NCBI GenBank assembly: GCA_041660605.1
Contig: JBAZWB010000001.1
Coordinates: forward strand, 393,295 to 457,294
DNA from: Patescibacteria group bacterium
GTDB lineage: Bacteria > Patescibacteriota > Patescibacteriia > UBA10025 > JAHIVO01
Direction of reading: 5' to 3'
DNA: 64,000 nt
Part shown: positions 17,057 through 50,178 of the stretch, piece by piece
Numbering within the stretch: position 1 is the first letter of the stretch
Layout of the letters: each line of letters begins with the position of its first letter
Position numbers and translations under genes: made by a program
Notes under the pieces: model-generated
Database searches by the model: none
The model's input: only the letters and a program-made list of their open reading frames with translations
Told to the model about the DNA's origin: nothing

Positions 17057-17190
17057 ACTTACCAATATTCAGAATCCGGATTGTTGTTAAGGTATCCAAA
17101 AGACTGGATAGTTGAGAATAAAAGAGCCTTTTTTATAATAAGCAGTCAGTTTCTCACAATAACAAAGGTATTTTTATATAAATTTTAAAT

Positions 17191-17232
17191 TTGACTGCAT
17201 TAGGGTACTAGTATTAGGGTTAAAATATCAAC
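17191..17232 (+). repeat. Copy 2 of the shared upstream element
   Basis: Same motif TTGACTGCAT..GGTACTAGTATTAGGGTTAAAATAT, upstream of the 17399 gene. Confidence 0.6.
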
Positions 17233-17398
17233 ACATTGAATACCAACTCATTAAAATCGATTAATATTTCACATATTTAATCACTAATCAATAAAAACAA
17301 AACTTATTACATTGGAGGGATGCACTTTGACAATTTAACTTCAGAATCAATCTTTACTCTAGTACTTCAAAACAAAATCCCTGAAAGGAGGGATTGCT

Positions 17399-19477
17399 AT
17401 GCTAAAGTTGTTAACTAACCTAGGTACTACGGTTCTCGTAGTAATTCTATTATCTGTAACGGCAATTGCAGGTGATACATGGCTGCTTACATTCCCGCTT
17501 GATGTACAACCGGATAGTTGGCCATGTAATTTCCAGTGTCATGACAATCGTCCCGGAGGAAATGACTACAGCTGTAATACAGGTACAAATGTATTAGCTG
17601 CAGAGGATGGATACGTTCATATTCACGACGATCCTGACGGTTATGGCACGTATCTCACGGAAGACATAGCCTATTATCAATTGTATTACGGGCATTTGTC
17701 GGAAGTATTAGTCAATGAGGGACAATTTGTTACCCAAGGAAGTGTGATTGCGAAAAGCGGGAGCACTGGTTGGTCCACGGGTCCACATCTTCATTTCGAA
17801 GTACGATCAAGCAATATGCCAATTGATCCGTATAATATTAATCACTGGCTCTGGGTTTCACCGCCACCATTCAATCCGGTAACTCTTTATTCACAGCTTG
17901 CATATTCTGGTACCTGCGTCGGTAAGTCCCACAGCAATACCCTAGTACTTCTACCGGGTTCTTCCGCAGAATGCTGGATTGATTTCAAGTGTAACCCGCC
18001 ATTCTATTGGTCAAGTAATGGGAATAGTTCGCATTATGTAGCACTGCATTCGGTAGCTAGTAACTGGACTGACATGGAAGACTCGCCGGTGATTACAGGC
18101 ACTACTAATTTGCTGGATGATGATGGTAGTACAGCGGATCCGAATGGTGTAGCTCGATTTAATTTCACCATAACTGCTCCACAGTCGCCCGGCACATATA
18201 CACTTCGTGCAAGAGTGTATCATCCACATTCAGGTACTTTTATCACAGGCACTGGTCCTGATGTTACATTTAATGTTCAGGTAGTCAGTCCACCGCAAGA
18301 AAACACCAGTTACTACCCTATTTCCGGTGACTTCAACGGTGACGGCCTGGCTGATGTGGGACTTTACGATCAGATAACCGGCAACTGGTACATAGCTTTG
18401 CACAGTTCGACTTCAAACCGCTTCATTCCACAAGCCGAACCCTGGCTCACTGGCTGGGGAACCGGCATCGGCAACTACTTGCCAACCAGTGGTGACGTTG
18501 ATGGTGATGGATTGTGGGATTTAATACTCTACCAGCCAGTCAATGGCCGGTGGGCAGTAGCCAAAAACTACGGCGGTTATTTCGCCCAGCTTAATGGAAC
18601 TTATATCCATGGCTGTTGGTATGAGAACTGGGGCACCGGCGAAGGAGTCTACTTTCCTGCAAGTGGTGATGTTGACGGTGACGGATTATGGGATGCCATA
18701 CTTTATCAGCCTGTTAACGGAAGATGGCCGGTAGCAAAGAACTACGGTGACCACTTCACCCAGATCAACGGGCCATATGCGCGCGGCTGTTGGTACGAGA
18801 ACTGGGGAACCGGCGTGGGTGTCTACCAGCCAGTCTCTGGAGATGTTGACGGTGACGGTTTATCTGACATTTTACTCTACCAGCCAGTCAATGGCCGGTG
18901 GGCAGTAGCCAAAAACTACGGCGGTTATTTCGCGCAATTGAACGGACCGTATGTTCGAGGATGTTGGCTGGCTAACTGGGGAACAGGCGTTGGAGTTTAC
19001 ATGCCCATCAGCGGTGACGTAGACAATGACGGCTTGACTGATATTCTGCTTTACGTTCCAAGTACCGGTAGATGGGCAGTTGCCAAGAACTATGGTGGCT
19101 ATTTTGCCCAGATCAATGGCCCTTATATTAATGGCTGCTGGCTGGTGAACTGGGGCATTCAGAACGAAGGTACCCCGAAAATCGCTACTCCAGAAACGGA
19201 GAATCCGCTTCCGGCAGACTTCACTCTTTCCCAAAACTATCCGAATCCATTCAATCCGGTCACGAATATCAGCTATTCATTACCGGTTGCTGCCGATGTC
19301 TGCCTGGAAATTTACAACGTCCTGGGGCAGAGAGTAGCCACGCTGGCAAATGAACGGCAGGTGGCTGGTGAGCACAGCATTCAGTGGGATGCTCATCAGT
19401 GTCCGTCCGGAATCTATTTCTACAGGTTAACAACAGATCAGGTTACTGAAACGAAAAAAATGATCATTCTGAAGTAA
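17399..19477 (+). CDS. Secreted M23 (LytM/lysostaphin-type) metallopeptidase with 5 FG-GAP-like repeats and a T9SS (Por) C-terminal sorting domain
   Basis: Signal peptide; HIHDDPD and GPHLHFEV M23 motifs; five SGDVDGDGLxD-type repeats; C-terminal QNYPNPFNPVTNISYSLP...LEIYNVLGQRVATL...SGIYFYRL sorting-tail signature; strong SD aaggaggg. Confidence 0.8.
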   Translation: MLKLLTNLGTTVLVVILLSVTAIAGDTWLLTFPLDVQPDSWPCNFQCHDNRPGGNDYSCNTGTNVLAAEDGYVHIHDDPDGYGTYLTEDIAYYQLYYGHLSEVLVNEGQFVTQGSVIAKSGSTGWSTGPHLHFEVRSSNMPIDPYNINHWLWVSPPPFNPVTLYSQLAYSGTCVGKSHSNTLVLLPGSSAECWIDFKCNPPFYWSSNGNSSHYVALHSVASNWTDMEDSPVITGTTNLLDDDGSTADPNGVARFNFTITAPQSPGTYTLRARVYHPHSGTFITGTGPDVTFNVQVVSPPQENTSYYPISGDFNGDGLADVGLYDQITGNWYIALHSSTSNRFIPQAEPWLTGWGTGIGNYLPTSGDVDGDGLWDLILYQPVNGRWAVAKNYGGYFAQLNGTYIHGCWYENWGTGEGVYFPASGDVDGDGLWDAILYQPVNGRWPVAKNYGDHFTQINGPYARGCWYENWGTGVGVYQPVSGDVDGDGLSDILLYQPVNGRWAVAKNYGGYFAQLNGPYVRGCWLANWGTGVGVYMPISGDVDNDGLTDILLYVPSTGRWAVAKNYGGYFAQINGPYINGCWLVNWGIQNEGTPKIATPETENPLPADFTLSQNYPNPFNPVTNISYSLPVAADVCLEIYNVLGQRVATLANERQVAGEHSIQWDAHQCPSGIYFYRLTTDQVTETKKMIILK
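18322..19190 (+). repeat. Intragenic tandem array of about 5 units of roughly 175 nt, with about 58-nt blocks identical between units
   Basis: ctctaccagccagtcaatggccggtgggcagtagccaaaaactacggcggttatttcgc occurs at about 18528 and again at about 18880. Confidence 0.7.
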
Positions 19478-19498
19478 CCTTCCCTAAATCACAATCAA

Positions 19499-19531
19499 CC
19501 CTTGCGGCAGAAATGCTGCAAGGTTTTTTTA
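19499..19531 (+). terminator. Intrinsic terminator of the M23/FG-GAP gene
   Basis: ccttgcggcag-aaat-gctgcaagg perfect hairpin followed by ttttttt. Confidence 0.8.
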
Positions 19532-19586
19532 TCTGTTCATTTTATATATTAAATACGGCAGTTATGTGGTAAAAATCAACCAAGTC

Positions 19587-19614
19587 TTGACAATATTAAT
19601 TTTTAGGTTATACT
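19587..19614 (+). promoter_or_regulatory. Sigma70-like promoter (TTGACA, 16-nt spacer, TATACT)
   Basis: Near-consensus hexamers upstream of the 19689 gene. Confidence 0.5.
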
Positions 19615-19688
19615 ATATAGTTCAATAGTCTTAGTTCGCACATTATATTATTGAGATAATAAACAAAGGATAATTTCCTAGGAGGGAT

Positions 19689-20042
19689 ATGGATCCTAAG
19701 GTTGCAGTTTTAATTGGTGTGATGGCGGTAGTAGCGGTTATTATTGCTCTGCGAAATAAGCCAGGGCAGAATAAGCCGGTTGTTGTCGAGGCTGAACGGA
19801 TTCCTCGAACACTGGTAATCAGTGTCAGATGCATTGTGTACGAAGGCAATAAAACCCTTGCCAAGTATCCTAATGAACGCATCATCGTTGGTCGAGGGAG
19901 ATATCTTTTAGAGAAGGTTCCCAGCCTAGACAACTTTGGTGGCTGTTGGTTGGTGCTAGAAGGTACAATGCGCGGCCGGCCTATTGATGAATGGCTGGCG
20001 GAGGCTCAGGATAAAACATCCGAGTACCGTCTCGAATATTGA
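19689..20042 (+). CDS. Hypothetical small protein with an N-terminal TM helix
   Basis: Strong SD aggaggg; own promoter and terminator. Confidence 0.5.
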   Translation: MDPKVAVLIGVMAVVAVIIALRNKPGQNKPVVVEAERIPRTLVISVRCIVYEGNKTLAKYPNERIIVGRGRYLLEKVPSLDNFGGCWLVLEGTMRGRPIDEWLAEAQDKTSEYRLEY

Positions 20043-20078
20043 GACGAACACGATTACAATTCACCTTCACCGGTGAAG

Positions 20079-20108
20079 CCCGTTGGCAGATGTCGACGGG
20101 TTTTTTTA
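20079..20108 (+). terminator. Intrinsic terminator
   Basis: cccgttggcagatgtcgacggg hairpin followed by ttttttt, preceded by a second hairpin cttcaccggtgaag. Confidence 0.75.
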
Positions 20109-20159
20109 TTGAAAAAGCCATTAATTGCTAATGAATTTGCATATTTTTATAAAATGGCA

Positions 20160-20188
20160 TTGACAAATTGAAAGAAATGGAGTACACT
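20160..20188 (+). promoter_or_regulatory. Sigma70-like promoter (TTGACA, 17-nt spacer, TACACT) with an A/T-rich UP region
   Basis: Hexamers upstream of the Zn-ribbon gene. Confidence 0.5.
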
Positions 20189-20218
20189 AGTGGATAAAAT
20201 ATGTTTTGGGGAGGAAGT

Positions 20219-20509
20219 ATGTCATTTCTCGGAACGATCGTTGCGCACCTTGCGACAAGACCAATAACCCAATATGTTGATTCGACATCAAGTACTGGCA
20301 ATACTGGACAGCCTAAAGAATTACCCAGATGCCGTAAATGTGGCCAAAAGCATAAGGACGGGGAATCGTGTCCTTGTCCGCTTTGTCCTAAATGCGGCAG
20401 TGTTATGGAAGCAGCTGATAATAGTGGAGTGCTTCAGTGCTACCATAATGCTTACCATTGTCTGGTATGCGGAAACACTTTAAGGGTTAACGGAAAACAC
20501 AGGCGGTGA
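20219..20509 (+). CDS. Small Cys-rich zinc-ribbon protein; an alternative start exists at 20201
   Basis: CRKCGQK...CPCPLCPKCG...CYHNAYHCLVCG Cys clusters; SD ggggagga precedes the ATG at 20219. Confidence 0.5.
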   Translation: MSFLGTIVAHLATRPITQYVDSTSSTGNTGQPKELPRCRKCGQKHKDGESCPCPLCPKCGSVMEAADNSGVLQCYHNAYHCLVCGNTLRVNGKHRR

Positions 20510-20543
20510 AAAAAACTTCAAAACTTTTCACCGCTATTTTTTT
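20504..20543 (+). terminator. Intrinsic terminator
   Basis: gcggtgaaaa...ttttcaccgc hairpin followed by a T-run. Confidence 0.7.
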
Positions 20544-20604
20544 AGATAATTTATTTGAGTTTCCTACTCTTGCTTTTCTTTAAGTTGACGGTTAAAATTA
20601 ATTC

Positions 20605-39969: not shown

Positions 39970-40092
39970 ATGAAAAATTTTTCAGTACAAGTCGTTCAAC
40001 CTGAAACGCTCGGCACTCACCAAGGCCCGGGAAATCCCGGGATTTTTTTTATCTCCAATTTTTTTAGCGGTATTACAATGGTGTATGAATAA
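39970..40092 (+). CDS. Candidate 40-aa leader peptide (MKNFSVQVVQPETLGTHQGPGNPGIFFISNFFSGITMVYE) spanning the attenuator and overlapping the carA start by 8 nt
   Basis: Small ORF read directly from the sequence; contains the terminator hairpin and U-tracts; ends 5 nt inside carA. Confidence 0.35.
   Translation: MKNFSVQVVQPETLGTHQGPGNPGIFFISNFFSGITMVYE
40024..40051 (+). terminator. Intrinsic terminator/attenuator immediately upstream of carA
   Basis: gcccggg-aaat-cccgggc-like hairpin followed by tttttttt. Confidence 0.65.
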
Positions 40093-41170
40093 TAGAAGAA
40101 CTACAAAAGCAACTCTATTACTTGAAGACGGATCACGGTACACTGGCCGGGTATTCGGCTGCAAAAAACAAAGCGTGGCAGGTGAAATTGTTTTTACTAC
40201 CGGCATGGTTGGCTATTCAGAATCATTGACTGACCCGTCATATCGCGGTCAAATTCTTGTTATGACTTATCCGCTAATCGGCAATTATGGGGTTGAATGT
40301 AGTCAGGCACAATCGCGTTCTTTGGACGAATCTTTTGAGTCAGAGAGAATCCAGGCCAGCGCGCTCATAGTATCATCGCAAATAACCAAACCCAGTCATT
40401 ATAAATCAGCGCGAAGTCTTGAGCAATGGCTGGCCAGCGAGAAAATAATTGGTCTAGAAGGGATTGACACTCGTTCATTAACGCAGCGGTTGCGTGAACA
40501 TGGCACTATGCTGGCAAAAATTATAATTGATGATAACGATATTCCCTGGTTTGATCCGAATAAACAAAATATAGTTGAGCAGGTAAGCAGTCCGCGGATA
40601 CGAAGATACGGTTCACGCGGGCCGCATGTTGTTGTTATTGATTGCGGAGCAAAGCGGGGAATCATCCGCGAGTTATGCCAGCGCTCCTGCCGCGTAACGA
40701 GAGTACCATGGAATTATCCAGTCAGTACCATGCGGGGGATTGACGGCGTAGTGGTCTCAAACGGACCTGGCAATCCGGTTTATGCTTCTGAAACGGTTGA
40801 TGAATTGAAGCGCCTTATCAAATTGCGGATTCCCCTCTGGGGAATCTGCCTGGGACACCAGCTGCTGGCAATGGCTTTGGGTGCGCGGACTTACAAACTC
40901 GCTTATGGACACCGCAGCCAAAACCAGCCAGTGATTGATATTAAATCAGGCCGTGCTTTCATCACCAGTCAAAATCATGGATTTGCGGTTAGGGAATCGA
41001 CTCTGCCCAGTTCAGCCAGGCCGTGGTTCAGAAACGGCAATGACGGAACAAATGAAGGATTTAAACACAGCACTCAGCCTATATGGGGCGTGCAATTTCA
41101 TCCTGAGGCTTCCCCCGGGCCGCGCGATACCGCGTTTTTGTTTGATGAATTTATTAATTTATTAAAATGA
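40085..41170 (+). CDS. carA: Carbamoyl-phosphate synthase small (glutamine amidotransferase) subunit
   Basis: GICLGHQ catalytic Cys and the GATase class-I triad region. Confidence 0.9.
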   Translation: MNNRRTTKATLLLEDGSRYTGRVFGCKKQSVAGEIVFTTGMVGYSESLTDPSYRGQILVMTYPLIGNYGVECSQAQSRSLDESFESERIQASALIVSSQITKPSHYKSARSLEQWLASEKIIGLEGIDTRSLTQRLREHGTMLAKIIIDDNDIPWFDPNKQNIVEQVSSPRIRRYGSRGPHVVVIDCGAKRGIIRELCQRSCRVTRVPWNYPVSTMRGIDGVVVSNGPGNPVYASETVDELKRLIKLRIPLWGICLGHQLLAMALGARTYKLAYGHRSQNQPVIDIKSGRAFITSQNHGFAVRESTLPSSARPWFRNGNDGTNEGFKHSTQPIWGVQFHPEASPGPRDTAFLFDEFINLLK

Positions 41171-44100
41171 GCAAACATCCCCTAACGATATTACTTTTAG
41201 GCTCTGGCGCCTTAAAAATCGGCCAGGCAGGGGAATTTGATTATTCTGGTTCGCAGGCCATTAAAGCAATTAAAGCATGCGGTTACCGGGTTGTTCTGAT
41301 AAATCCAAATGTCGCTACTATTCAGACGTCAGACAGCTTGGCTGATGAGGTTTATTTTCTGCCAGTTGACGCTTATTTTGCTGAAAAGGTGATTACCGCG
41401 GAACGGCCATACGGCATTATGCTTGGTTTTGGCGGCCAAACAGCTCTTAACTGCGGGCTTGAATTAGACCGACGGGGTGTTTTGAAAAAGTATAGTGTTA
41501 AAGTTCTTGGGACGCCAATTAAAAGTATCCGTTTAACCGAGGACAGGGAACTGTTCGCGAATTTTATGGTACGCAACGGTTTTTGCGTGCCGCGTAGCAA
41601 AGCGGTAACGTCTGTTAAAGCAGCCCAGAGTGCGGCCAAACGGATAGGGTATCCGGTAATGATCCGCAGCGGATTTTCATTGGGTGGACTCGGTTCAGGC
41701 ATAGTGCAAACGCCTAGTGAATTGATTGCCATCGCTACTGCAGCGCTGGCTCACGCTCCGCAAATTCTCATTGAAGAATGCCTGCGCGGTTGGAAGGAAG
41801 TTGAGTATGAGGTGGTCAGGGACAGCAGCGGAAATTGCTGTACAATTTGCAATATGGAAAATCTTGATCCGCTTGGTATACATACGGGAGACAGCATTGT
41901 CGTAGCGCCATCCCAGACTCTTAACAACCGTGAGTACCATAGTCTGCGATCTATATCCATTAATGTAATTAAAAAGCTGGGTATTATCGGCGAGTGCAAT
42001 ATCCAGTTTGCCCTTGATCCAATTTCGGATAAGTATCGGATTATCGAAGTTAATGCCCGCCTTTCCCGTTCTTCCGCGCTCGCCTCCAAGGCTACAGGAT
42101 ATCCGCTGGCCGCGGTGGCAGCTCAGCTGGCGCTGGGGAAGCAATTAACAGAGATACGGAACGCAGTGACGAAAAAAACCCCGGCTTTTTTCGAACCCGC
42201 GCTTGATTATATCGTTTTGAAATTCCCGCGTTGGGATTTCTCCAAATTTCTCCATGCTGACCTGAGTATCGGTAGTCAGATGAAAAGCGTCGGTGAGGTG
42301 ATGGCCATCGGCCGAAGCTTCCCGGAAGTCCTCCAAAAAGCCATTCGCATGCTGGATATCGGCCGTGACAGCATATTAGATAAAAATCCGGATCCTGTCG
42401 CACTGGCTGACGCCGCTAAGCCGACACCGCAAAGAATTTTTTACTTGGCTGCCGCTTTATATCATGGCATTTCACCAGCTGTACTATCTAAGCGCACAGG
42501 GATTGACCGCTGGTTTCTCAGTCAAATCCAAGATATTACAAAATTACAAAAGCAGCTGCAAAGCTCTTTATTCAATCAGTTTAATAAATCAACCCTTTTG
42601 GAAGCGAAGCAATTTGGTTTCAGCGACTGCCTGCTTGGTAAACTCTGCGGAATGAGTAGCGATCAGATTCGCGCCAAACGCAAGCAATTTGATGTTTTGC
42701 CATATGTGAAACGCATTGATACGGTCGCGGCTGAGTTTCCCGCTCAGACAAATTATCTCTATTGCACTTATCACGCCACCGCTTCTGACCGGCTTCCCGA
42801 TAAACGAAAGTCGGCCGTGGTTATCGGGTCAGGGGTATACCGGATCGGATCATCCGTGGAGTTTGACTGGTGCGCAGTAAATGCGGCTGCTGAACTGCAC
42901 CGGCAGGGATTCAGTTCAATAATGATCAACTGCAATCCTGAAACTGTTTCAACTGACTATGATGTCAGTGATGCACTATATTTTGAGGAGCTGACGCTGG
43001 AGCGGGTTTTGGATATTTGTGATCACGAAAATCCTGAAGGTGCGGTGGTTTCAGTCGGCGGCCAGGTAGCCAATAATCTTGCTTTGGGTCTGGCCAAGCG
43101 GAGAATTAATTTGCTGGGCACCTCGGCGAAAGCCATTGATAACGCGGAGGATAGACATAAATTTTCCAAGCTGTTGGATCGTTTGGGAATCAAGCAACCA
43201 GCCTGGACTGAAGCGACAACGGCCGTCGCGACCGAGTCTTTTGCTGAACGCGTTGGTTTCCCGGTAATAATCCGGCCGAGCTATGTCCTTAGCGGATCAG
43301 CGATGAATGTGGCGACTAACATGAACCAGCTTCGCCTGTTCCTGCGTGATGCCGCGCTTGTTTCACCAGAGCATCCAGTTGTAGTTTCAAAATTTGAAAT
43401 TGACGCACATGAAATTGACGTTGATGCAGTAGCGCAGAATGGGAGGATATTGACTGCTATTGTTTCCGAGCATGTTGAAAATGCCGGCGTGCATTCGGGA
43501 GACGCAACGCTGGTCCTGCCCCCGCAGAAAGTTTATATTGAAACATACCAGCAAATTAAGGAAGCAGTTAATAAAATAGCCGCAGAGTTGCAGATAACCG
43601 GTCCATGCAATTTTCAATTTCTTGCCCGGGACAACCAGATAAAAGTGATTGAATGCAATTTGCGTGCTTCACGGAGCTTTCCTTTTGCCTCAAAGGTAAC
43701 CAATATTAATCTTATTAAATTGTCAATCCAGGCAATGGTCCTGCGTCAGGTGGCCCCTCATCCTGTGCCGCGCTTGCCTTACGTAGCAGTGAAGGCGCCC
43801 CAATTTTCTTTTCATCGGTTGACCGGCACTGATCCGATACTGCGTGTTGAGATGGCTTCAACCGGCGAAGTGGCCTCGTTCGGTCGGGATGTATATGAGG
43901 CATTTCTTAAATCAGTTTTGGCAACCGGCTTCCGCCTTCCTCGCCGGAGCATTCTGCTAAGTCTAGGCGGGGAGCATAATAAAATGAAACTGCTTGATGA
44001 AATTCAGTCTCTGGCTAACAGGGGATTCTATCTTTTTGCCACGGAGAATACTCATGAATTCCTGACCGCACGGGGGATTGCCAGCAAATTATTGCATAAA

Positions 44101-44370
44101 ATTCACATTACGAAAGAACCGAACATCAGGTCTTACCTTCAGCAGCATAAAATTGAGCTGGTCATAAATCTGGCACACCAGTTTGAGGGTGAAGTAATAC
44201 GCGATGATTATGTTATGCGCCGGTTAGCAATTGATTTCAATGTTCCTCTAATAACCAATCTGCAATTGGCGCAGCTATTTCTCCGTGCAATTCAGTGTAA
44301 AAATCTTGATGACCTTCAGGCAAAACCCTGGTCAGCATACCGGCCCTTAGTTAATGCGAAAAAATTATAG
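41167..44370 (+). CDS. carB: Carbamoyl-phosphate synthase large subunit
   Basis: Two ATP-grasp halves, oligomerisation and MGS-like domains over 1067 aa. Confidence 0.95.
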   Translation: MSKHPLTILLLGSGALKIGQAGEFDYSGSQAIKAIKACGYRVVLINPNVATIQTSDSLADEVYFLPVDAYFAEKVITAERPYGIMLGFGGQTALNCGLELDRRGVLKKYSVKVLGTPIKSIRLTEDRELFANFMVRNGFCVPRSKAVTSVKAAQSAAKRIGYPVMIRSGFSLGGLGSGIVQTPSELIAIATAALAHAPQILIEECLRGWKEVEYEVVRDSSGNCCTICNMENLDPLGIHTGDSIVVAPSQTLNNREYHSLRSISINVIKKLGIIGECNIQFALDPISDKYRIIEVNARLSRSSALASKATGYPLAAVAAQLALGKQLTEIRNAVTKKTPAFFEPALDYIVLKFPRWDFSKFLHADLSIGSQMKSVGEVMAIGRSFPEVLQKAIRMLDIGRDSILDKNPDPVALADAAKPTPQRIFYLAAALYHGISPAVLSKRTGIDRWFLSQIQDITKLQKQLQSSLFNQFNKSTLLEAKQFGFSDCLLGKLCGMSSDQIRAKRKQFDVLPYVKRIDTVAAEFPAQTNYLYCTYHATASDRLPDKRKSAVVIGSGVYRIGSSVEFDWCAVNAAAELHRQGFSSIMINCNPETVSTDYDVSDALYFEELTLERVLDICDHENPEGAVVSVGGQVANNLALGLAKRRINLLGTSAKAIDNAEDRHKFSKLLDRLGIKQPAWTEATTAVATESFAERVGFPVIIRPSYVLSGSAMNVATNMNQLRLFLRDAALVSPEHPVVVSKFEIDAHEIDVDAVAQNGRILTAIVSEHVENAGVHSGDATLVLPPQKVYIETYQQIKEAVNKIAAELQITGPCNFQFLARDNQIKVIECNLRASRSFPFASKVTNINLIKLSIQAMVLRQVAPHPVPRLPYVAVKAPQFSFHRLTGTDPILRVEMASTGEVASFGRDVYEAFLKSVLATGFRLPRRSILLSLGGEHNKMKLLDEIQSLANRGFYLFATENTHEFLTARGIASKLLHKIHITKEPNIRSYLQQHKIELVINLAHQFEGEVIRDDYVMRRLAIDFNVPLITNLQLAQLFLRAIQCKNLDDLQAKPWSAYRPLVNAKKL

Positions 44371-44873: not shown

Positions 44874-45524
44874 TTGAATAAAATTGTACTTTGGTTTCGG
44901 TATATGTTCAATTTCCAAGGGCTACCGGCAACAGGCGATCCGCGACAGGCTGACGTAGTCATCGTTCAGGCATTCGGTCGAAATGGATTCTCTGACCAGG
45001 AACTGAATATGCTTGGTAAACTAACTGAAGTTGAACAAATCAGTGATGTTGAGATGATGGATATCCTTCGTCAGTGGAATTTTGATCCAGGGCAATCAAA
45101 CAGGGAATTAGCCGAAGAGTGCCGCAGGATAATGGACAAATATAAATTGTCTGCTATCGTCCAATGGGAGATTGCTGTGGCATTTCCGACTGACTGGTAT
45201 GCCGCAAACAACCAACGTATTATCTGCCTTTGGCCATCAGCTGAATCATTACAGTATTTTTCTACCCGCAAGGTATTGGAAAATACTCTAGCTAAAATGA
45301 TAAAACGAAGGTGGTCATTGCCGATTGAATTGGCGCACCACGGCCAGATTCTCCGAGCCTATCTGATGGTCAGAAAAATTTTTGGAAACGCACCGGTTAT
45401 TCTATCGCCGTACCCAAAAAGCTTTGACCGCAAATCGGTTCAACCATGGACACGCAGTCGTTGGCGCTGGCTCTGCAGGGAAATCATTGTTCGTTGGCAT
45501 CATTTGCTAAAAAGATGGGTGTGA
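44874..45524 (+). CDS. Hypothetical protein (TTG start, strong SD); GC-richer than its neighbours
   Basis: 216-aa ORF preceded by aaggaggagagag; no confident family. Confidence 0.45.
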   Translation: MNKIVLWFRYMFNFQGLPATGDPRQADVVIVQAFGRNGFSDQELNMLGKLTEVEQISDVEMMDILRQWNFDPGQSNRELAEECRRIMDKYKLSAIVQWEIAVAFPTDWYAANNQRIICLWPSAESLQYFSTRKVLENTLAKMIKRRWSLPIELAHHGQILRAYLMVRKIFGNAPVILSPYPKSFDRKSVQPWTRSRWRWLCREIIVRWHHLLKRWV

Positions 45525-45568
45525 AAGATCAAAATCGGGGTGACTACTGGCGACAGTAGCACCCTTTT

Positions 45569-46462
45569 TTATTTATTGTAAAATTTTTTAATTATTTGTT
45601 CAGCTTTTGAAATTTTATTTATCCAGTGAATGCGCTGGTCGCGCTTAAACCAGGTCATCTGGCGCTTGGCGTATTTATGTATGGCATTTTCTAATTGGGC
45701 GACCATTTGCAGGCGAGTTAAAATCCCACGCAGGTAGAGACTGACATAGCGGTATTCCAGGCCGATATCGTAGAGCCTCTTCCAGCTGACTCCCTGTTGG
45801 TGAAGCTTTTTTACTTCGGTGATCATCCCCTGGCTAATTCTTTTTTTCAGCCGCTGGTCAATGAGTTTATTTAATTTTTTGCGTGGCAATGATATTCCTA
45901 TTATTAGGGGATCAAAAGGGGATTGTTTTTTTAGAGGTGCAATTAATTTACCAGTAGCCTTTATTATCTCAATCGCGCGTATCAGCCGATAAGGATTTTT
46001 TTTGTCTATCGATTTGGCACGACGGGGATCAAGTTTTTTTAATATATTATAAAGCTGGCTGGTGGTTTTTTTTGACAGCTGATGGCGCAATTTTTTATCC
46101 GGTTTTACTTTTGGCAGATCAAGGTCATCAACCACTGATTGTATCCAAAAACCGGTACCGCCGGTGAGAATGGGCAGCTTGTTTTTATTATAGATTTTTT
46201 TAATTACCAGTAAAGCCTGGCGCTTGAAATGCGAGACGTTGAATTCCCGCTGCGGGTCTGCTACGTCCAGGAGGTAATGTTTGGCCTGCCGCTGTTCTGT
46301 CTTTGAAGCTTTGCCGCTGCCGATATCCATACCCCGGAAAACCTGGCGGGAATCAGCGGAGATTATTTCGCCATTGTATTTCTTGGCCAGTTTGATGGCC
46401 AGGGATGTCTTGCCAGAGGCGGTAGGTCCGAGAATGACAATTAATTTTGGTTTGTTTCGCAT
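45569..46462 (-). CDS. miaA: tRNA dimethylallyltransferase
   Basis: P-loop GPTASGKT and the IPP-transferase fold sequence. Confidence 0.9.
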   Translation of the reverse strand: MRNKPKLIVILGPTASGKTSLAIKLAKKYNGEIISADSRQVFRGMDIGSGKASKTEQRQAKHYLLDVADPQREFNVSHFKRQALLVIKKIYNKNKLPILTGGTGFWIQSVVDDLDLPKVKPDKKLRHQLSKKTTSQLYNILKKLDPRRAKSIDKKNPYRLIRAIEIIKATGKLIAPLKKQSPFDPLIIGISLPRKKLNKLIDQRLKKRISQGMITEVKKLHQQGVSWKRLYDIGLEYRYVSLYLRGILTRLQMVAQLENAIHKYAKRQMTWFKRDQRIHWINKISKAEQIIKKFYNK

Positions 46463-46522
46463 GCATTTATTTTACACTATATCCATATTTTTAAAAACTT
46501 AATTGGTCGATATTATGTTGTC

Positions 46523-46551
46523 TTGACAATCAATATACTTCGTGCTAATAT
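46523..46551 (+). promoter_or_regulatory. Sigma70-like promoter (TTGACA, 17-nt spacer, TAATAT)
   Basis: Precedes the 46595 gene; the first of three similar promoter-gene-terminator units. Confidence 0.5.
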
Positions 46552-46594
46552 AGCAAGTCATTTGTACATTAAGCCCAAAGGAAGGAGGAACGTT

Positions 46595-46945
46595 ATGGTA
46601 TATTCTATTTGGGTAATCGGTCGCGACGAGCTGCCTATCAGTGTCGCTGATTTGCTTAGGGGGATATTTAAGCAGGCGACGATTGAGGTGGTACCTGTTG
46701 ATGATTTTCGGGATAAACCCGGAACTGCTGACCTTGCAGTGATCACCAACTATGACCTTGGCCAGGGTAAAAATGCCATTCAGTTAATGGCATCCCGACC
46801 GGATTTCAGTTATTTGTGGATGGTTAGTGGGGTAACCCGCCCTCTGGCTCAGCATGTGCCGAGCCACATTAGTCGACAAATAGTTGATAAACCGGCTAAC
46901 TCTCAGGAATTGGCCGAAGCAGTTACTCGCGCTCTGTGCATCTAA
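46595..46945 (+). CDS. Small receiver (CheY/REC)-like domain protein, degenerate
   Basis: IWVIGRDE...DLAVITNYDL...LWMVSG...DKP pattern resembles a REC fold; strong SD ggaggaacg. Confidence 0.35.
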   Translation: MVYSIWVIGRDELPISVADLLRGIFKQATIEVVPVDDFRDKPGTADLAVITNYDLGQGKNAIQLMASRPDFSYLWMVSGVTRPLAQHVPSHISRQIVDKPANSQELAEAVTRALCI

Positions 46946-46971
46946 GTGCACTAAATGAAATAGGAATTCCG

Positions 46972-47007
46972 CCGTTGTTACCACCCTGGTACAACGGCCT
47001 TTTTTTA
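46972..47007 (+). terminator. Intrinsic terminator
   Basis: ccgttgt-taccaccctggt-acaacgg hairpin followed by cctttttttattt. Confidence 0.75.
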
Positions 47008-47019
47008 TTTAGCCTAGGC

Positions 47020-47047
47020 TTGACAGGCGGGAAGGAAAGTGATAATA
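47020..47047 (+). promoter_or_regulatory. Sigma70-like promoter (TTGACA ... GATAAT)
   Basis: Hexamers upstream of the 47081 gene. Confidence 0.45.
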
Positions 47048-47080
47048 TTTTATGAAATATACGTTAGTTAGGAGGGTTGT

Positions 47081-47377
47081 ATGTCTGAAATTCTTATTGT
47101 CGGTGATTCTGTATCAGTCGCTACTGCCAGGCAACTATTGGAAAGTACGACATGGCACACTATTTCCGTTGCTATGAGTCCGGAAGAGGCAGCCGCTAAA
47201 GACAGGATCCGTATTGATGGAAACCTACAGGGCTTTGATCTGATTATGGCGTTTGGATTAGAAAGGAGAGCTTTCAATCAAATCTGTCATTGCCGGCCCG
47301 ATCAGTTAATCCTGACTTTTCCGACGGTTCCGGAAGATGTGTCGAAGAAGGTGGAAGAGGCACTATCGGTTCCTTAA
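47081..47377 (+). CDS. Small receiver-like domain protein, paralog of the 46595 product
   Basis: ILIVGD...DLIMAFG...LILTF...VEEAL is parallel to the upstream protein; SD aggaggg. Confidence 0.35.
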   Translation: MSEILIVGDSVSVATARQLLESTTWHTISVAMSPEEAAAKDRIRIDGNLQGFDLIMAFGLERRAFNQICHCRPDQLILTFPTVPEDVSKKVEEALSVP

Positions 47378-47393
47378 GATCTCTCTATGCTGC

Positions 47394-47426
47394 ACGGCTG
47401 CCCTTGCCAGGCGGCCTTTTTTTATT
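47394..47426 (+). terminator. Intrinsic terminator
   Basis: ggctgcc-cttgcca-ggcggcc hairpin followed by tttttttattt. Confidence 0.6.
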
Positions 47427-47435
47427 TGTCCGGGC

Positions 47436-47464
47436 TTGACTAAATACGTAAAAAGTAATATACT
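47436..47464 (+). promoter_or_regulatory. Sigma70-like promoter (TTGACT, 17-nt spacer, TATACT)
   Basis: Hexamers upstream of the 47519 gene. Confidence 0.5.
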
Positions 47465-47518
47465 TCGTTAATATTTGTTGGTTTTGTCCTTTGTCATTAA
47501 AAAAAAGTAGGAGGTCAG

Positions 47519-48034
47519 TTGCGAAACAGCTTTACTATGCCAAGTGAGCACCATCATGTACGTCTCGCGGCATCGTTTGCTGCCATCTTCTTTGCCATCG
47601 GATGGGTACCGGTTGAGTTAATAGTTCCGTTTTTAGTGAAATTGTTCCAGCTTCGCGGACTTGTTTTTATCGCCTTGTCATTGCATAAGGCGATTTATGT
47701 GGTTGGATTCATACTTTCGCTAAATACGCTTCTCAACCATGCCAGCGGCAGGCGTTATCTTGAAAAACGCAAGTTTGGTCGATTTCTTCTGAAACTCTTG
47801 GGGCACAAAAACTCCGGACGTTTACACGGCTGGCGGCTAGTGGTTTATGAGATTTGGTATCACGCGGGTTTAGCGGTCTTCGGATTTTTTCCAATTTTTG
47901 TAAAATTTGCTATTGCACGCTGCTCCCTGTATCCCCGGTTTTCCGCGATTTCATGCGTGGTGACAGCTACTACCCTCGGTTCTTATCTGATTGTCTATTA
48001 TGGCGTTGATGTACTCAATTGGTTCATCGGTTAA
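47519..48034 (+). CDS. Hypothetical polytopic membrane protein (TTG start, SD aggaggtca) with a His-rich N-terminus
   Basis: 171 aa with 4-5 TM helices; the MPSEHHHVRL N-terminus is reminiscent of membrane-bound metal-hydrolase families (weak). Confidence 0.4.
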   Translation: MRNSFTMPSEHHHVRLAASFAAIFFAIGWVPVELIVPFLVKLFQLRGLVFIALSLHKAIYVVGFILSLNTLLNHASGRRYLEKRKFGRFLLKLLGHKNSGRLHGWRLVVYEIWYHAGLAVFGFFPIFVKFAIARCSLYPRFSAISCVVTATTLGSYLIVYYGVDVLNWFIG

Positions 48035-48066
48035 ACCGCAGGCATTTTCTAAGTGCAGGCGGTTTT

Positions 48067-49446
48067 TTATTTATCCAGTTTTCCTGCTAAACCCCAGGCG
48101 CTGGCTTTTTCTATTTTTACGTTTATAAACTGGCCAATGAGGTCCTGCGTACTTATTACCTCAACGGTTTTAAAACCCTCGGTTTTGCCGTGAAAAACGT
48201 TCTTACCGCGGCCGCGCTTGTCAATCAGCACTTTCTGCGTGGTGCCGATTAATTTCTTGTTATTTTCCAGTGCAGTTTTCGCCAGAATGTCGTTTAATAT
48301 TTTTTCGCGCTCCATTTTGGTTTTTTTCGGCACATCGTCGGGAAAAAAGCGCGCGGCCGCGGTGCCCAGGCGGGGAGAGTATTGCGCCAGGTAGGCCATG
48401 TCGTATTTTACGGTTTTCATCAGCTCTGCCGTTTGCTGGAATTGCTCATTTGTTTCACCGGGAAAACCGACGATGACGTCAGTGGTGATAGCTACCCCTG
48501 GCCAGGCAGCGCGCAGGCGTTTTATCAGATCTAGATAATACCGGCGGTTATGGCGACGGTTCATACGCCGCAATATTTCATCATCACCCGATTGGATCGG
48601 CAAATGAAAAAACCGGGTCATTTTTTCGCACTGCGGCAAAGTCTTTAAAAGCTCCTCTGAAACATCCTGCGGATTGGAGGTCAGAAATCGTATCCAGAAA
48701 TTACCAGGCAGGCTGTTTATTTTAATTAATAATTCAGAAAAATCCTTGGGCACTTTAGTAGTGGCTGTGCGCCATTGGATTGCCTGGCCTTTCTTAAAAC
48801 GCCAGTAATCCCGCGAGCGAGATTCCAGAATATCCTTGTCGTGGTTTTTTTCCGGATCAATATAAGCATTGACGTTCTGGCCCAGCAAGGTAATTTCCTT
48901 GTACCCTTGGTTTATCAGGTTTTTTACTTCGTTAATAATATCCGAAGAGGGGCGTGAAGCCTCCTGTCCGCGGGTATATGGCACGGCGCAGTAGGTGCAA
49001 TAATTATTGCAGCCGGTCATGATAGGAATAAAAGCCTGAAAGGGGGAGCTATGCAGAGCATCCAAAGACAGGTAATCAGCATTAGTTATTGTTTCTTTGG
49101 TTTTGAGCTTTTTATCCAGCCCAAGTAGTTGGGGAAATCCGGCAATATCTTTAATCTCCAAAAAAATGTCAAAATCTTTCTGTAATTTAATTCTGTCTGC
49201 GGGTAGTACACAGCCGGTTAGAATCAATTTAAGAGGGCGTTCTTTTTTCCAAAGGCGCCATTTTTCTATGCTGCCAAAAATTCTGTCCATGGCTTTCTGC
49301 CTGACTGAGCAGGAAACGACGATTATCAGGTCTGCTTGATTTTCATTTTGAGTGGCCTCACAATCATGGGATTGCAAAATGCTGGCCAGACGTTCAGCAT
49401 CTGACCAGTTCATCTGGCAGCCAATGGTAAATAAGTAATATTTCAT
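48067..49446 (-). CDS. miaB: tRNA-2-methylthio-N6-dimethylallyladenosine synthase (radical-SAM methylthiotransferase with TRAM domain)
   Basis: N-terminal MTTase Cys motif (IGCQMN), radical-SAM CNNYCTYC, C-terminal TRAM; start placed at MKYYLFTIGCQMN. Confidence 0.85.
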   Translation of the reverse strand: MKYYLFTIGCQMNWSDAERLASILQSHDCEATQNENQADLIIVVSCSVRQKAMDRIFGSIEKWRLWKKERPLKLILTGCVLPADRIKLQKDFDIFLEIKDIAGFPQLLGLDKKLKTKETITNADYLSLDALHSSPFQAFIPIMTGCNNYCTYCAVPYTRGQEASRPSSDIINEVKNLINQGYKEITLLGQNVNAYIDPEKNHDKDILESRSRDYWRFKKGQAIQWRTATTKVPKDFSELLIKINSLPGNFWIRFLTSNPQDVSEELLKTLPQCEKMTRFFHLPIQSGDDEILRRMNRRHNRRYYLDLIKRLRAAWPGVAITTDVIVGFPGETNEQFQQTAELMKTVKYDMAYLAQYSPRLGTAAARFFPDDVPKKTKMEREKILNDILAKTALENNKKLIGTTQKVLIDKRGRGKNVFHGKTEGFKTVEVISTQDLIGQFINVKIEKASAWGLAGKLDK

Positions 49447-49529
49447 AATGTGTTTAATTCTAAGGCTAAAAAGGTTCCAAGGCAAGGGCAATTGTGTTAT
49501 ACTGGAAATATCATTAATTTCCGCGGAAA

Positions 49530-49679
49530 ATGACTGACGAATTTAAAAAACAGATAGAGAAAGAAGAGCTGATAGGCACCGATCAGAAATTAGGTACTGG
49601 CATGAAAGTAGCTCTGACTACCATCGTTGTCCTTTCGGTGGCGGCAGGCGTGGCCGTAGCTTTGTTCTTAGCTAAGTAG
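49530..49679 (+). CDS. Possible 49-aa tail-anchored membrane protein
   Basis: MTDEFKKQIEKEELIGTDQKLGTGMKVALTTIVVLSVAAGVAVALFLAK read from the sequence; below the ORF-track cutoff. Confidence 0.3.
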   Translation: MTDEFKKQIEKEELIGTDQKLGTGMKVALTTIVVLSVAAGVAVALFLAK

Positions 49680-50136
49680 ATAAGAACAAAGATAATTCGG
49701 ATTTGTTTGGTGATAGTTTGATTATTTTTTTGGTATACAGAATCCCAATTTAGCAAATTGGCTTTTTTTTGATTATGATTGTGTTATTAGATTGTCCACA
49801 TAAAGCATATTGACAATTTTTAGCACATACCCTAAGATAAATGAACTTATTTGTACATTCATGTTAATAATCGGGGAGGTTCCTAGGGTCGGAGGTGAGT
49901 TTGACCCGCAGGCTGTTTGTGCATTGCGCACCCAAACGTTTTTAAGTGGCCAGTTACCATTGGTTGTCTCGGCATCGTATCTGCAGGACTTCTTACCGTA
50001 GGCAGCCAAATGCGTTTTGTGGTGAATAAAAAAATAAAACTGGCAAAGCCCCTAGCTAGGCATTATCTCAGCGGAATTTTCTCAGTGGAAGCGTCCCAAT
50101 GGATTTTCTGCCAGTGATCGCAAACACCCAGCCTCC

Positions 50137-50178
50137 CCAACCATTATATATAGGGAATCGACATAAAGTCAGATTCCC
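50137..50178 (+). terminator. Intrinsic terminator closing a roughly 330-nt non-coding plus-strand unit
   Basis: agggaatc-gacataaagtca-gattccct hairpin followed by tattttttttgg. Confidence 0.55.

Follow-up and report, generated by a model that had tools for sequence, protein, structure and literature searches.

In a 64,000 nucleotide stretch of the genome of a Patescibacteria group bacterium (contig JBAZWB010000001.1 of GenBank assembly GCA_041660605.1, positions 393,295 to 457,294; hereafter the window), the tRNA modification genes miaA and miaB are separated by three small genes that lie on the opposite strand. We consider it probable, if some way from secure, that these genes form an old, lineage-specific islet that has split an ancestral miaB-miaA operon in one Patescibacteria lineage, and that the first of them, open reading frame (ORF) 116, encodes a pseudo-receiver. 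An initial annotation of this DNA had described three units between miaA and miaB, each made up of a promoter, a Shine-Dalgarno (SD) sequence, an ORF and a hairpin followed by a T-run, and all three were found as described. Each of the three genes, ORF116, ORF98 and ORF171, is predicted to be a transcription unit of its own, with a sigma-70-type promoter, an SD and an intrinsic terminator. The features of this cassette and its flanks, with positions in the window, are as follows.

45569..46462, minus strand: miaA (tRNA dimethylallyltransferase), intact (Pfam IPPT, 1.5e-67)
46523..46551, plus strand: promoter P1, TTGACA-17-TAATAT with an extended -10 TG
46580-46588, plus strand: SD of ORF116, GGAAGGAGG, with AGGAGG 6 nt before ATG 46595
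46595..46945, plus strand: ORF116, 116 aa, stand-alone receiver-like protein (putative pseudo-receiver)
46951..47012, plus strand: terminator T1, A-rich arm, GC hairpin and T-run (-23.4 kcal/mol, z -5.2)
47020..47048, plus strand: promoter P2, TTGACA-17-TAATAT with TG
47070-47075, plus strand: SD of ORF98, AGGAGG, 5 nt before ATG 47081
47081..47377, plus strand: ORF98, 98 aa, small soluble protein
47396..47423, plus strand: terminator T2, GC hairpin at 47396-47416 then T7 (-13.3 kcal/mol, z -1.3), weaker than T1 and T3
47436..47464, plus strand: promoter P3, TTGACT-17-TATACT
47509-47514, plus strand: SD of ORF171, AGGAGG, 4 nt before TTG 47519
47519..48034, plus strand: ORF171, 171 aa, membrane protein of an unannotated family with about four transmembrane spans (gene callers: ATG 47537, 165 aa)
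48035..48069, both strands: terminator T3, hairpin at 48035-48063 then T6, common to the convergent ORF171 and miaB (z -4.1 and -3.3)
48067..49446, minus strand: miaB (tRNA methylthiotransferase), intact (Pfam UPF0004, Radical_SAM and TRAM)

The extended promoter pattern is a rare one here, having four matches in the window at two or fewer mismatches where 0.76 were expected, and the arrangement is identical in an independent Logan assembly (L001). The small proteins of the cassette are entered in NCBI as WCV50_01510-01520.

The position of the cassette was assessed using 160 miaA loci fetched from species-representative genomes and metagenomes. The highest identity in miaA was 61%, and scans of genomes and metagenomes returned no closer relative. 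A full-length miaB is found 5' of miaA on the same strand in 33 Patescibacteria loci, and in 26 of the 33 the two genes overlap or lie no more than 23 nt apart. Because miaB abuts miaA in so many of these loci, we conclude from the comparison that the adjacency is ancestral and that the 1.6 kb at 46463-48066 is a derived insertion, which bears out the earlier proposal that the cassette interrupts this operon. The inserted genes are not a conserved core of related genomes, the outcome that the initial annotation had named as contrary to its proposal: no tblastn match to the four orphan genes (the three of the cassette and ORF216, described below) was found in the 159 other miaA loci. As in the miaB-miaA operon of other Patescibacteria, the flanking orthologues are intact and in the usual order, with thrS close by. 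The difference is that in the window and in one sister contig, L162, they are 1.6 kb apart with opposite-strand genes between them, and miaA would therefore need a promoter of its own.

No sign of a mobile element was seen. There is no integrase or transposase gene among the ORFs of 44.3-49.6 kb and no tRNA in the window, and neither target-site duplications nor inverted repeats bracket 46463-48066. An exact 15-nt direct repeat, TTTTATTTATCCAGT, occurs at 45613-45627, in the 3' part of miaA, and at 48065-48079, at the miaB stop codon. It is the sole such repeat and is probably due to chance; its copies span miaA together with the cassette and do not bracket the insertion. A phage, plasmid or viral origin was considered and rejected, as there were no DNA or protein matches.

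When homologues were sought with a word-indexed search, ORF116, ORF98 and ORF165 returned self-matches only. An exhaustive phmmer search of 1.84 billion representative sequences matched ORF116 to P0004 (116 aa, 59% identical, E 3.5e-36) and P0011 (126 aa, 28% identical). The first result for ORF116 was a false negative, and 'ORFan' calls made from a word-indexed search alone are unsafe. P0004 is encoded on the 2,259-nt contig L162, which comes from a sister lineage and carries the whole cassette. On it the ORF116 homologue, a middle gene and a gene for a 200-aa membrane protein are each followed by a terminator, and after the last of these comes miaB, convergent and represented by its 3' end. 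Receiver, small gene, membrane protein and miaB thus follow one another in the same order in both contigs. The signals are conserved with it. The first L162 promoter, TTGACA-17-TATGAT with TG (44-72), keeps the spacing and the TGCTA motif of P1 and is followed by the SD GGAGG, and the counterpart of P3, TTGACA-17-TACACT (1039-1067), is also followed by GGAGG, so that the cassette SDs are shared between the window and L162. The L162 membrane protein (1112-1714) is 28% identical to ORF171 (E 3e-10, Smith-Waterman z 16.6). Between ORF116 and P0004, identity at the three codon positions is 0.67/0.74/0.53 and the ratio of non-synonymous to synonymous substitution rates (dN/dS) is 0.21. With purifying selection or clear homologues in evidence, we conclude from the sequence comparisons that ORF116 and ORF171 are real, selected genes.

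A 15-nt block just after the ORF116 stop codon (46954-46968), AATGAAATAGGAATT, is identical at 475-489 in L162 although synonymous sites are saturated. In the predicted fold it forms an A-rich arm paired with the U-tract of the terminator, which suggests an extended or bidirectional terminator.

The remaining match, P0011, is one of two tandem and very divergent copies (P0012 and P0011, 124 and 126 aa) at a further locus, L163 (7463-8381), each with its own promoter, SD and terminator. The two are barely alike (BLASTP E 4e-4 over 39 residues), and they adjoin genes for a 257-aa membrane protein, a DsbA-like protein, ClpB and a type IV secretion system pilin. The family is very rare, L162 and L163 being the two other family-bearing loci among all the sequences searched.

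The miaB fragment on L162 shares 63% identity with the miaB of the window, where the best among the fetched species-representative genomes is 46.5%. Because the cassette is syntenic in L162 and ORF116 (59%) has diverged about as far as miaB (63%), the cassette appears from these comparisons to be older than the split of the two lineages, and a recent acquisition is therefore ruled out on this dating. The initial annotation had envisaged a foreign origin, and the cassette genes are indeed atypical for the genome in both composition and signals. The codon log-likelihood ratio (LLR) of the orphan ORFs is 0.02-0.16 bits/codon against 0.32+-0.11 for core genes, and their products are rich in Arg and poor in Lys, with K/(K+R) of 0.33-0.39 against about 0.62. 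Strong SDs (those with a duplex of at most -8 kcal/mol or with AGGAGG ahead of a TTG start) occur in the window only before compositionally atypical genes, at 17399, 19689, 44874, 46595, 47081 and 47519. Core genes, including miaA, miaB, thrS and hpf, the starts of which are secure, have AT-rich leaders without an SD and a median anti-SD duplex of -0.9 kcal/mol. In a subgroup of Parcubacteria, detection of the anti-SD motif is reported to fail frequently (PMC9297842), yet the cassette SDs are conserved in L162. The family members other than that of L162 are from a genome of 52% GC, that of L163, in which promoter/SD/terminator units are used throughout. The atypical composition, the distribution of strong SDs and the character of the L163 genome would fit a cassette transferred recently from an SD-using, GC-richer donor. 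The L162 synteny and the matching divergence of ORF116 and miaB stand against that explanation, as do the lack of an integrase, a tRNA or bracketing repeats and of relatives on phages, plasmids or viral contigs, and we regard it as unlikely. An old transfer from an L163-like lineage is possible.

The case for a receiver (REC) domain in ORF116 rests on profile-profile comparison. An alignment of the four family members, ORF116, P0004, P0011 and P0012 (A3), has the invariant residues G9, P14, L47, T51, N52, V77, T81, K99, P100, L106 and A113. A3 was compared using hhalign with four profiles: eight classic REC domains; those eight with three Pfam-verified Patescibacteria REC proteins (REC11); a profile of 15 REC sequences (REC15); and seven Patescibacteria REC domains alone. 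Against REC11 the match extends over 105 columns, the full length (Prob 90%, E 1.6e-6, z 12.1), and none of 100 column shuffles reached the observed score of 40.5, the shuffle maximum being 17.7. The match to the eight classic domains has P 0.001, Prob 21-37% and z 4.7, that to REC15 has Prob of about 50% and z 6.4, and all four comparisons agree in register. The sole PDB match of the family profile is to the receiver protein 3c3m, in register (E 0.3). When 4,930 local ORFs were searched with this profile, bona fide REC proteins made up two of the top four non-family matches, and the weak NCBIfam matches of both ORF116 and ORF98 fall on REC segments. We regard these results as good evidence, though short of conclusive, and the ORF116 family probably contains a REC-like domain. 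AlphaFold2 (AF2) single-sequence models are too low in confidence to decide the fold; their secondary structure elements roughly follow the order of beta-alpha repeats, and among the listed Foldseek matches of the ORF116 model those with the top TM-scores (0.38-0.48) are REC domains. Of the claim in the initial annotation that the 116-aa and 98-aa products are degenerate CheY-like receivers, the part concerning ORF116 therefore stands, on profile-profile evidence and not on structure, while ORF98 has a weak N-terminal resemblance to REC only.

Several other matches were set aside. P0005-P0009 are spurious as homologues, SprB-repeat adhesins having been matched via a repeated Y-x-W motif, and a PDB match to carcinoembryonic antigen has the same cause. 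Single-sequence phmmer searches found no REC match in PDB, and a REC hidden Markov model found no canonical REC domain among the ORFs of the window.

In the hhalign mapping onto CheY, the acidic pair D12/D13 corresponds to G9/R10 and the phospho-acceptor D57 to N52, which is invariant in the four members. T87 corresponds to S78, which is not conserved, and K109-P110 to the invariant K99-P100. ORF116 consequently lacks the quintet of a phosphorylatable receiver (acidic pair DD, phospho-acceptor D, T/S and K). Because ORF116 aligns to REC with Asn at the phospho-acceptor site and the acidic pair lost, it would, if the alignment is correct, be a stand-alone pseudo-receiver (PsR) as defined previously (PMC12632262), also called an aspartate-less receiver (ALR; PMC4395418). 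Examples of such domains, the known mechanisms of which have been reviewed, include RitR, with Asn at the Asp site, FrzS, the PsR domains of KaiA and CikA, and the plant PRRs, with Glu at the Asp site (PMC4395418, PMC12632262). ORF116 resembles them in aligning to REC over its full length, in the replacement of the phospho-Asp and loss of the acidic pair, and in retaining Lys-Pro. The replacing residue is Asn in the ORF116 family and Glu in the middle gene of L162. ORF116 differs from them in being missed by PF00072 and by phmmer in PDB, in having no output domain, in its invariant Thr-Asn dipeptide, and in belonging to a family known from three loci only, all on Patescibacteria-like contigs. 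Like the single-domain response regulators CheY, DivK, Spo0F and CpdR, members of the family are small (about 116-126 aa), consist of one receiver-like domain and are encoded by monocistronic genes. However, the response regulators require phosphorylation of an Asp by a kinase or phosphotransferase, and ORF116 has neither that Asp nor the metal-binding acidic pair. Canonical single-domain response regulators that are matched by PF00072 are encoded convergently and directly 3' of miaA in three of the fetched loci (L035, 7059-7421; L053, 5603-5989; L044, 7247-7651).

ORF98 is a different matter. The initial annotation had considered the 116-aa and 98-aa products mutually similar. BLASTP gave no alignment between them at E<=100, and in a Smith-Waterman comparison they score 23, less than shuffled sequences do on average (z -0.5), so the two cannot be called paralogues. 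Neither the word-indexed search nor comparison with L162 found a homologue of ORF98. Over 37-51 residues at the N-terminus, ORF98 can be aligned in register with beta1-beta3 of REC (hhalign P 0.013-0.017, equalled by 3-9% of shuffles), and it may be a truncated, degenerate or decaying receiver-like copy. The gene in the same position in L162 (598-948, 117 codons) is REC-like on its own, with Prob 62% and E 8e-5 over 93 columns and with Glu at the Asp position. Since L163 also has two copies side by side, paired receiver-like mini-proteins are plausible, from these alignments, as a recurring theme.

ORF171 has, by hydropathy, about four hydrophobic spans, a basic central loop and HHH at residues 11-13. 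The description in the initial annotation of a His-rich polytopic membrane protein of 171 aa is accurate as far as the spans and the HHH go; the HHH is not conserved in the L162 homologue. What the two share are the motifs G-x-VP-x-E-x-I-x-P in the first transmembrane span, KF in the third and TT-x-x-SY-x-x-VY-x-G-x-D-x-L at the C-terminus. None of the four orphan proteins has a significant match in Pfam, PHROGs, PADLOC or NCBIfam, and neither ORF171 nor ORF216 has one in PDB. The possibility that ORF171 is YqaA/DedA (VTT)-like was rejected, as hhalign scores were no better than those of shuffles. Relatives of ORF171 in L163 or among other inserts between miaB and miaA were not accepted either, a candidate in L163 with a Smith-Waterman z of 4.5 being unconfirmed by a profile test.

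A number of results weigh against the reading of the cassette as an islet with a pseudo-receiver. PF00072 at E<=1 matches none of ORF116, ORF98, P0004, P0011, P0012 and the L162 middle gene, where seven control REC domains from related loci were all matched. The comparison of A3 with the seven Patescibacteria REC domains alone is in register but non-significant (P 0.19), and the other REC profiles all contain the eight classic sequences, which were entered by hand. The AF2 models have a predicted local distance difference test score (pLDDT) of 54 for ORF116 and 50 for ORF98, and Foldseek found no match to either in PDB at E<0.05. No similarity was detected between ORF98 and any of ORF116, the profile of the ORF116 family and the L162 middle gene. 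The latter is itself interrupted by an in-frame TAG at 709-711, which the REC comparison read through; TAG serves as a stop in the neighbouring gene, and the middle gene may be a pseudogene or in fact two short ORFs, or the interruption may stem from an assembly error. The presence of a promoter and terminator for each gene means that there is no operon-level coupling. Finally, the codon scores of the three cassette ORFs are within the spread of those of 82 spurious shadow ORFs. Composition by itself does not prove that the orphan ORFs code for protein, even though the annotated frame of every one is the best-scoring of six.

The last of these results, together with the in-frame stop in L162 and with the lack of a homologue of ORF98, which is about 20 aa short of a full receiver, would be expected if some or all of the ORFs were not functional genes and ORF98 in particular were a decaying remnant. 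For ORF116 and ORF171 this is excluded by their conserved homologues and the dN/dS of 0.21. ORF98 retains a consensus promoter, an optimally spaced SD, an intact frame of 98 codons, a terminator and the best of six frames, and we find the explanation improbable.

If the cassette is indeed an old islet with a pseudo-receiver, ORF116 would not be phosphorylated on Asp and would most likely act through protein contacts, as a phosphorylation-independent adaptor or switch like other pseudo-receivers, the mode expected by analogy with them. ORF98 would be a fast-evolving, probably truncated second receiver-like protein in a slot that is REC-like, with Glu at the Asp site, in L162. ORF171, with its four spans, may be the membrane partner of ORF116 and ORF98, conserved adjacency being the sole link.

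The three genes could instead be functionally unrelated accessory genes gathered at a permissive operon junction, with ORF116 a pseudo-receiver and ORF98 and ORF171 unconnected to it. The miaB-miaA junction seems to be tolerant of insertions. In L119, L105, L092, L120 and L072 the same junction carries unrelated genes, mostly on the opposite strand, that encode radical SAM and NUDIX proteins, a major facilitator superfamily protein with a membrane protein, an HD-domain protein and a small membrane protein. The separate transcription units would also suit unconnected genes, as would the failure of the middle gene sequence to be conserved between the window and L162 and the different neighbourhood of the family in L163. 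Against this, the gene order has been kept across two lineages that are only 63% identical in miaB, and the weak membrane-protein candidate in L163, non-significant in the profile test, is 1.5 kb from the receiver pair. We consider it rather doubtful that the genes are unrelated.

The initial annotation had suggested a toxin-immunity-like module. The genes are small, adjacent and unannotated, and one encodes a membrane protein. A toxin-immunity or toxin-antitoxin-like module is nevertheless highly improbable, as the genes are monocistronic and not co-transcribed, there is no PADLOC, Pfam, PHROG or NCBIfam match, and ORF116 aligns with receiver domains. A more ambitious version of the pseudo-receiver reading, which we offer as speculation with little chance of being right, is that the trio forms a minimal signalling module independent of Asp phosphorylation, in which the four-span protein would be the sensor or anchor for two pseudo-receivers and the Thr-Asn dipeptide would form a switch controlled by a Ser/Thr kinase or a ligand, replacing two-component chemistry in a reduced genome.

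A further orphan gene with an SD, reported at 44874 in the initial annotation, is present on the other side of miaA and has its own terminator.

44874..45524, plus strand: ORF216, orphan gene, 216 aa from TTG 44874 (gene callers: ATG 44904, 206 aa), convergent with miaA
4 nt 5' of TTG 44874, plus strand: SD of ORF216, AAGGAGGAG
45537..45575, plus strand: terminator of ORF216, hairpin and T-run (-20 kcal/mol, z -5.7), overlapping the miaA stop codon

ORF216 is atypical for the genome in codon LLR (0.04) and K/(K+R) (0.35). Motifs seen by eye had pointed to a DUF218/YdcF-like protein, which neither Pfam nor PDB supported. Upstream of it are ORFs that were named carA-like (40085-41170) and carB-like (41167-44370) from the sequence by eye; the former is also atypical in composition (K/(K+R) 0.33, codon LLR 0.10). 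On the far side of miaB, the 730 nt between it and thrS (49447-50178) contain only a mini-ORF of 49 aa with a transmembrane segment (49530-49679, plus strand) and, at 49810, a site resembling a near-consensus promoter, 3' of which no gene is convincing. In relatives, the spacing between thrS and miaB is about 1.6 kb. A second islet, at 17112-20550, is likewise built from units of promoter, SD, gene and hairpin with T-run. Its genes encode a 692-aa protein, a 117-aa protein with an N-terminal transmembrane helix and a 102-aa Cys-rich protein, all with low codon scores. By eye only, the 692-aa protein has an M23 peptidase-like region, repeated FG-GAP-like units and a C-terminal tail of the type IX secretion system type.

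The islet is a modest, lineage-specific curiosity. It does not represent a novel type of system, ORF116, its best-characterised product, being most likely a new and very divergent pseudo-receiver, and the immediate impact is limited because the family is known from three loci and its function is inferred only. The islet does provide a clean case in which self-contained transcription units have broken up an ancestral operon, miaB-miaA, and the occurrence of SD-bearing units in a genome with SD-less core genes bears on translation initiation in Parcubacteria-like organisms. If our interpretation is right, it would give bacteria of the candidate phyla, whose signalling repertoire is sparse, a very divergent family of stand-alone pseudo-receivers that Pfam does not see, and the trio would offer a small, conserved and experimentally tractable set of genes for finding out how pseudo-receivers work without phosphorylation.

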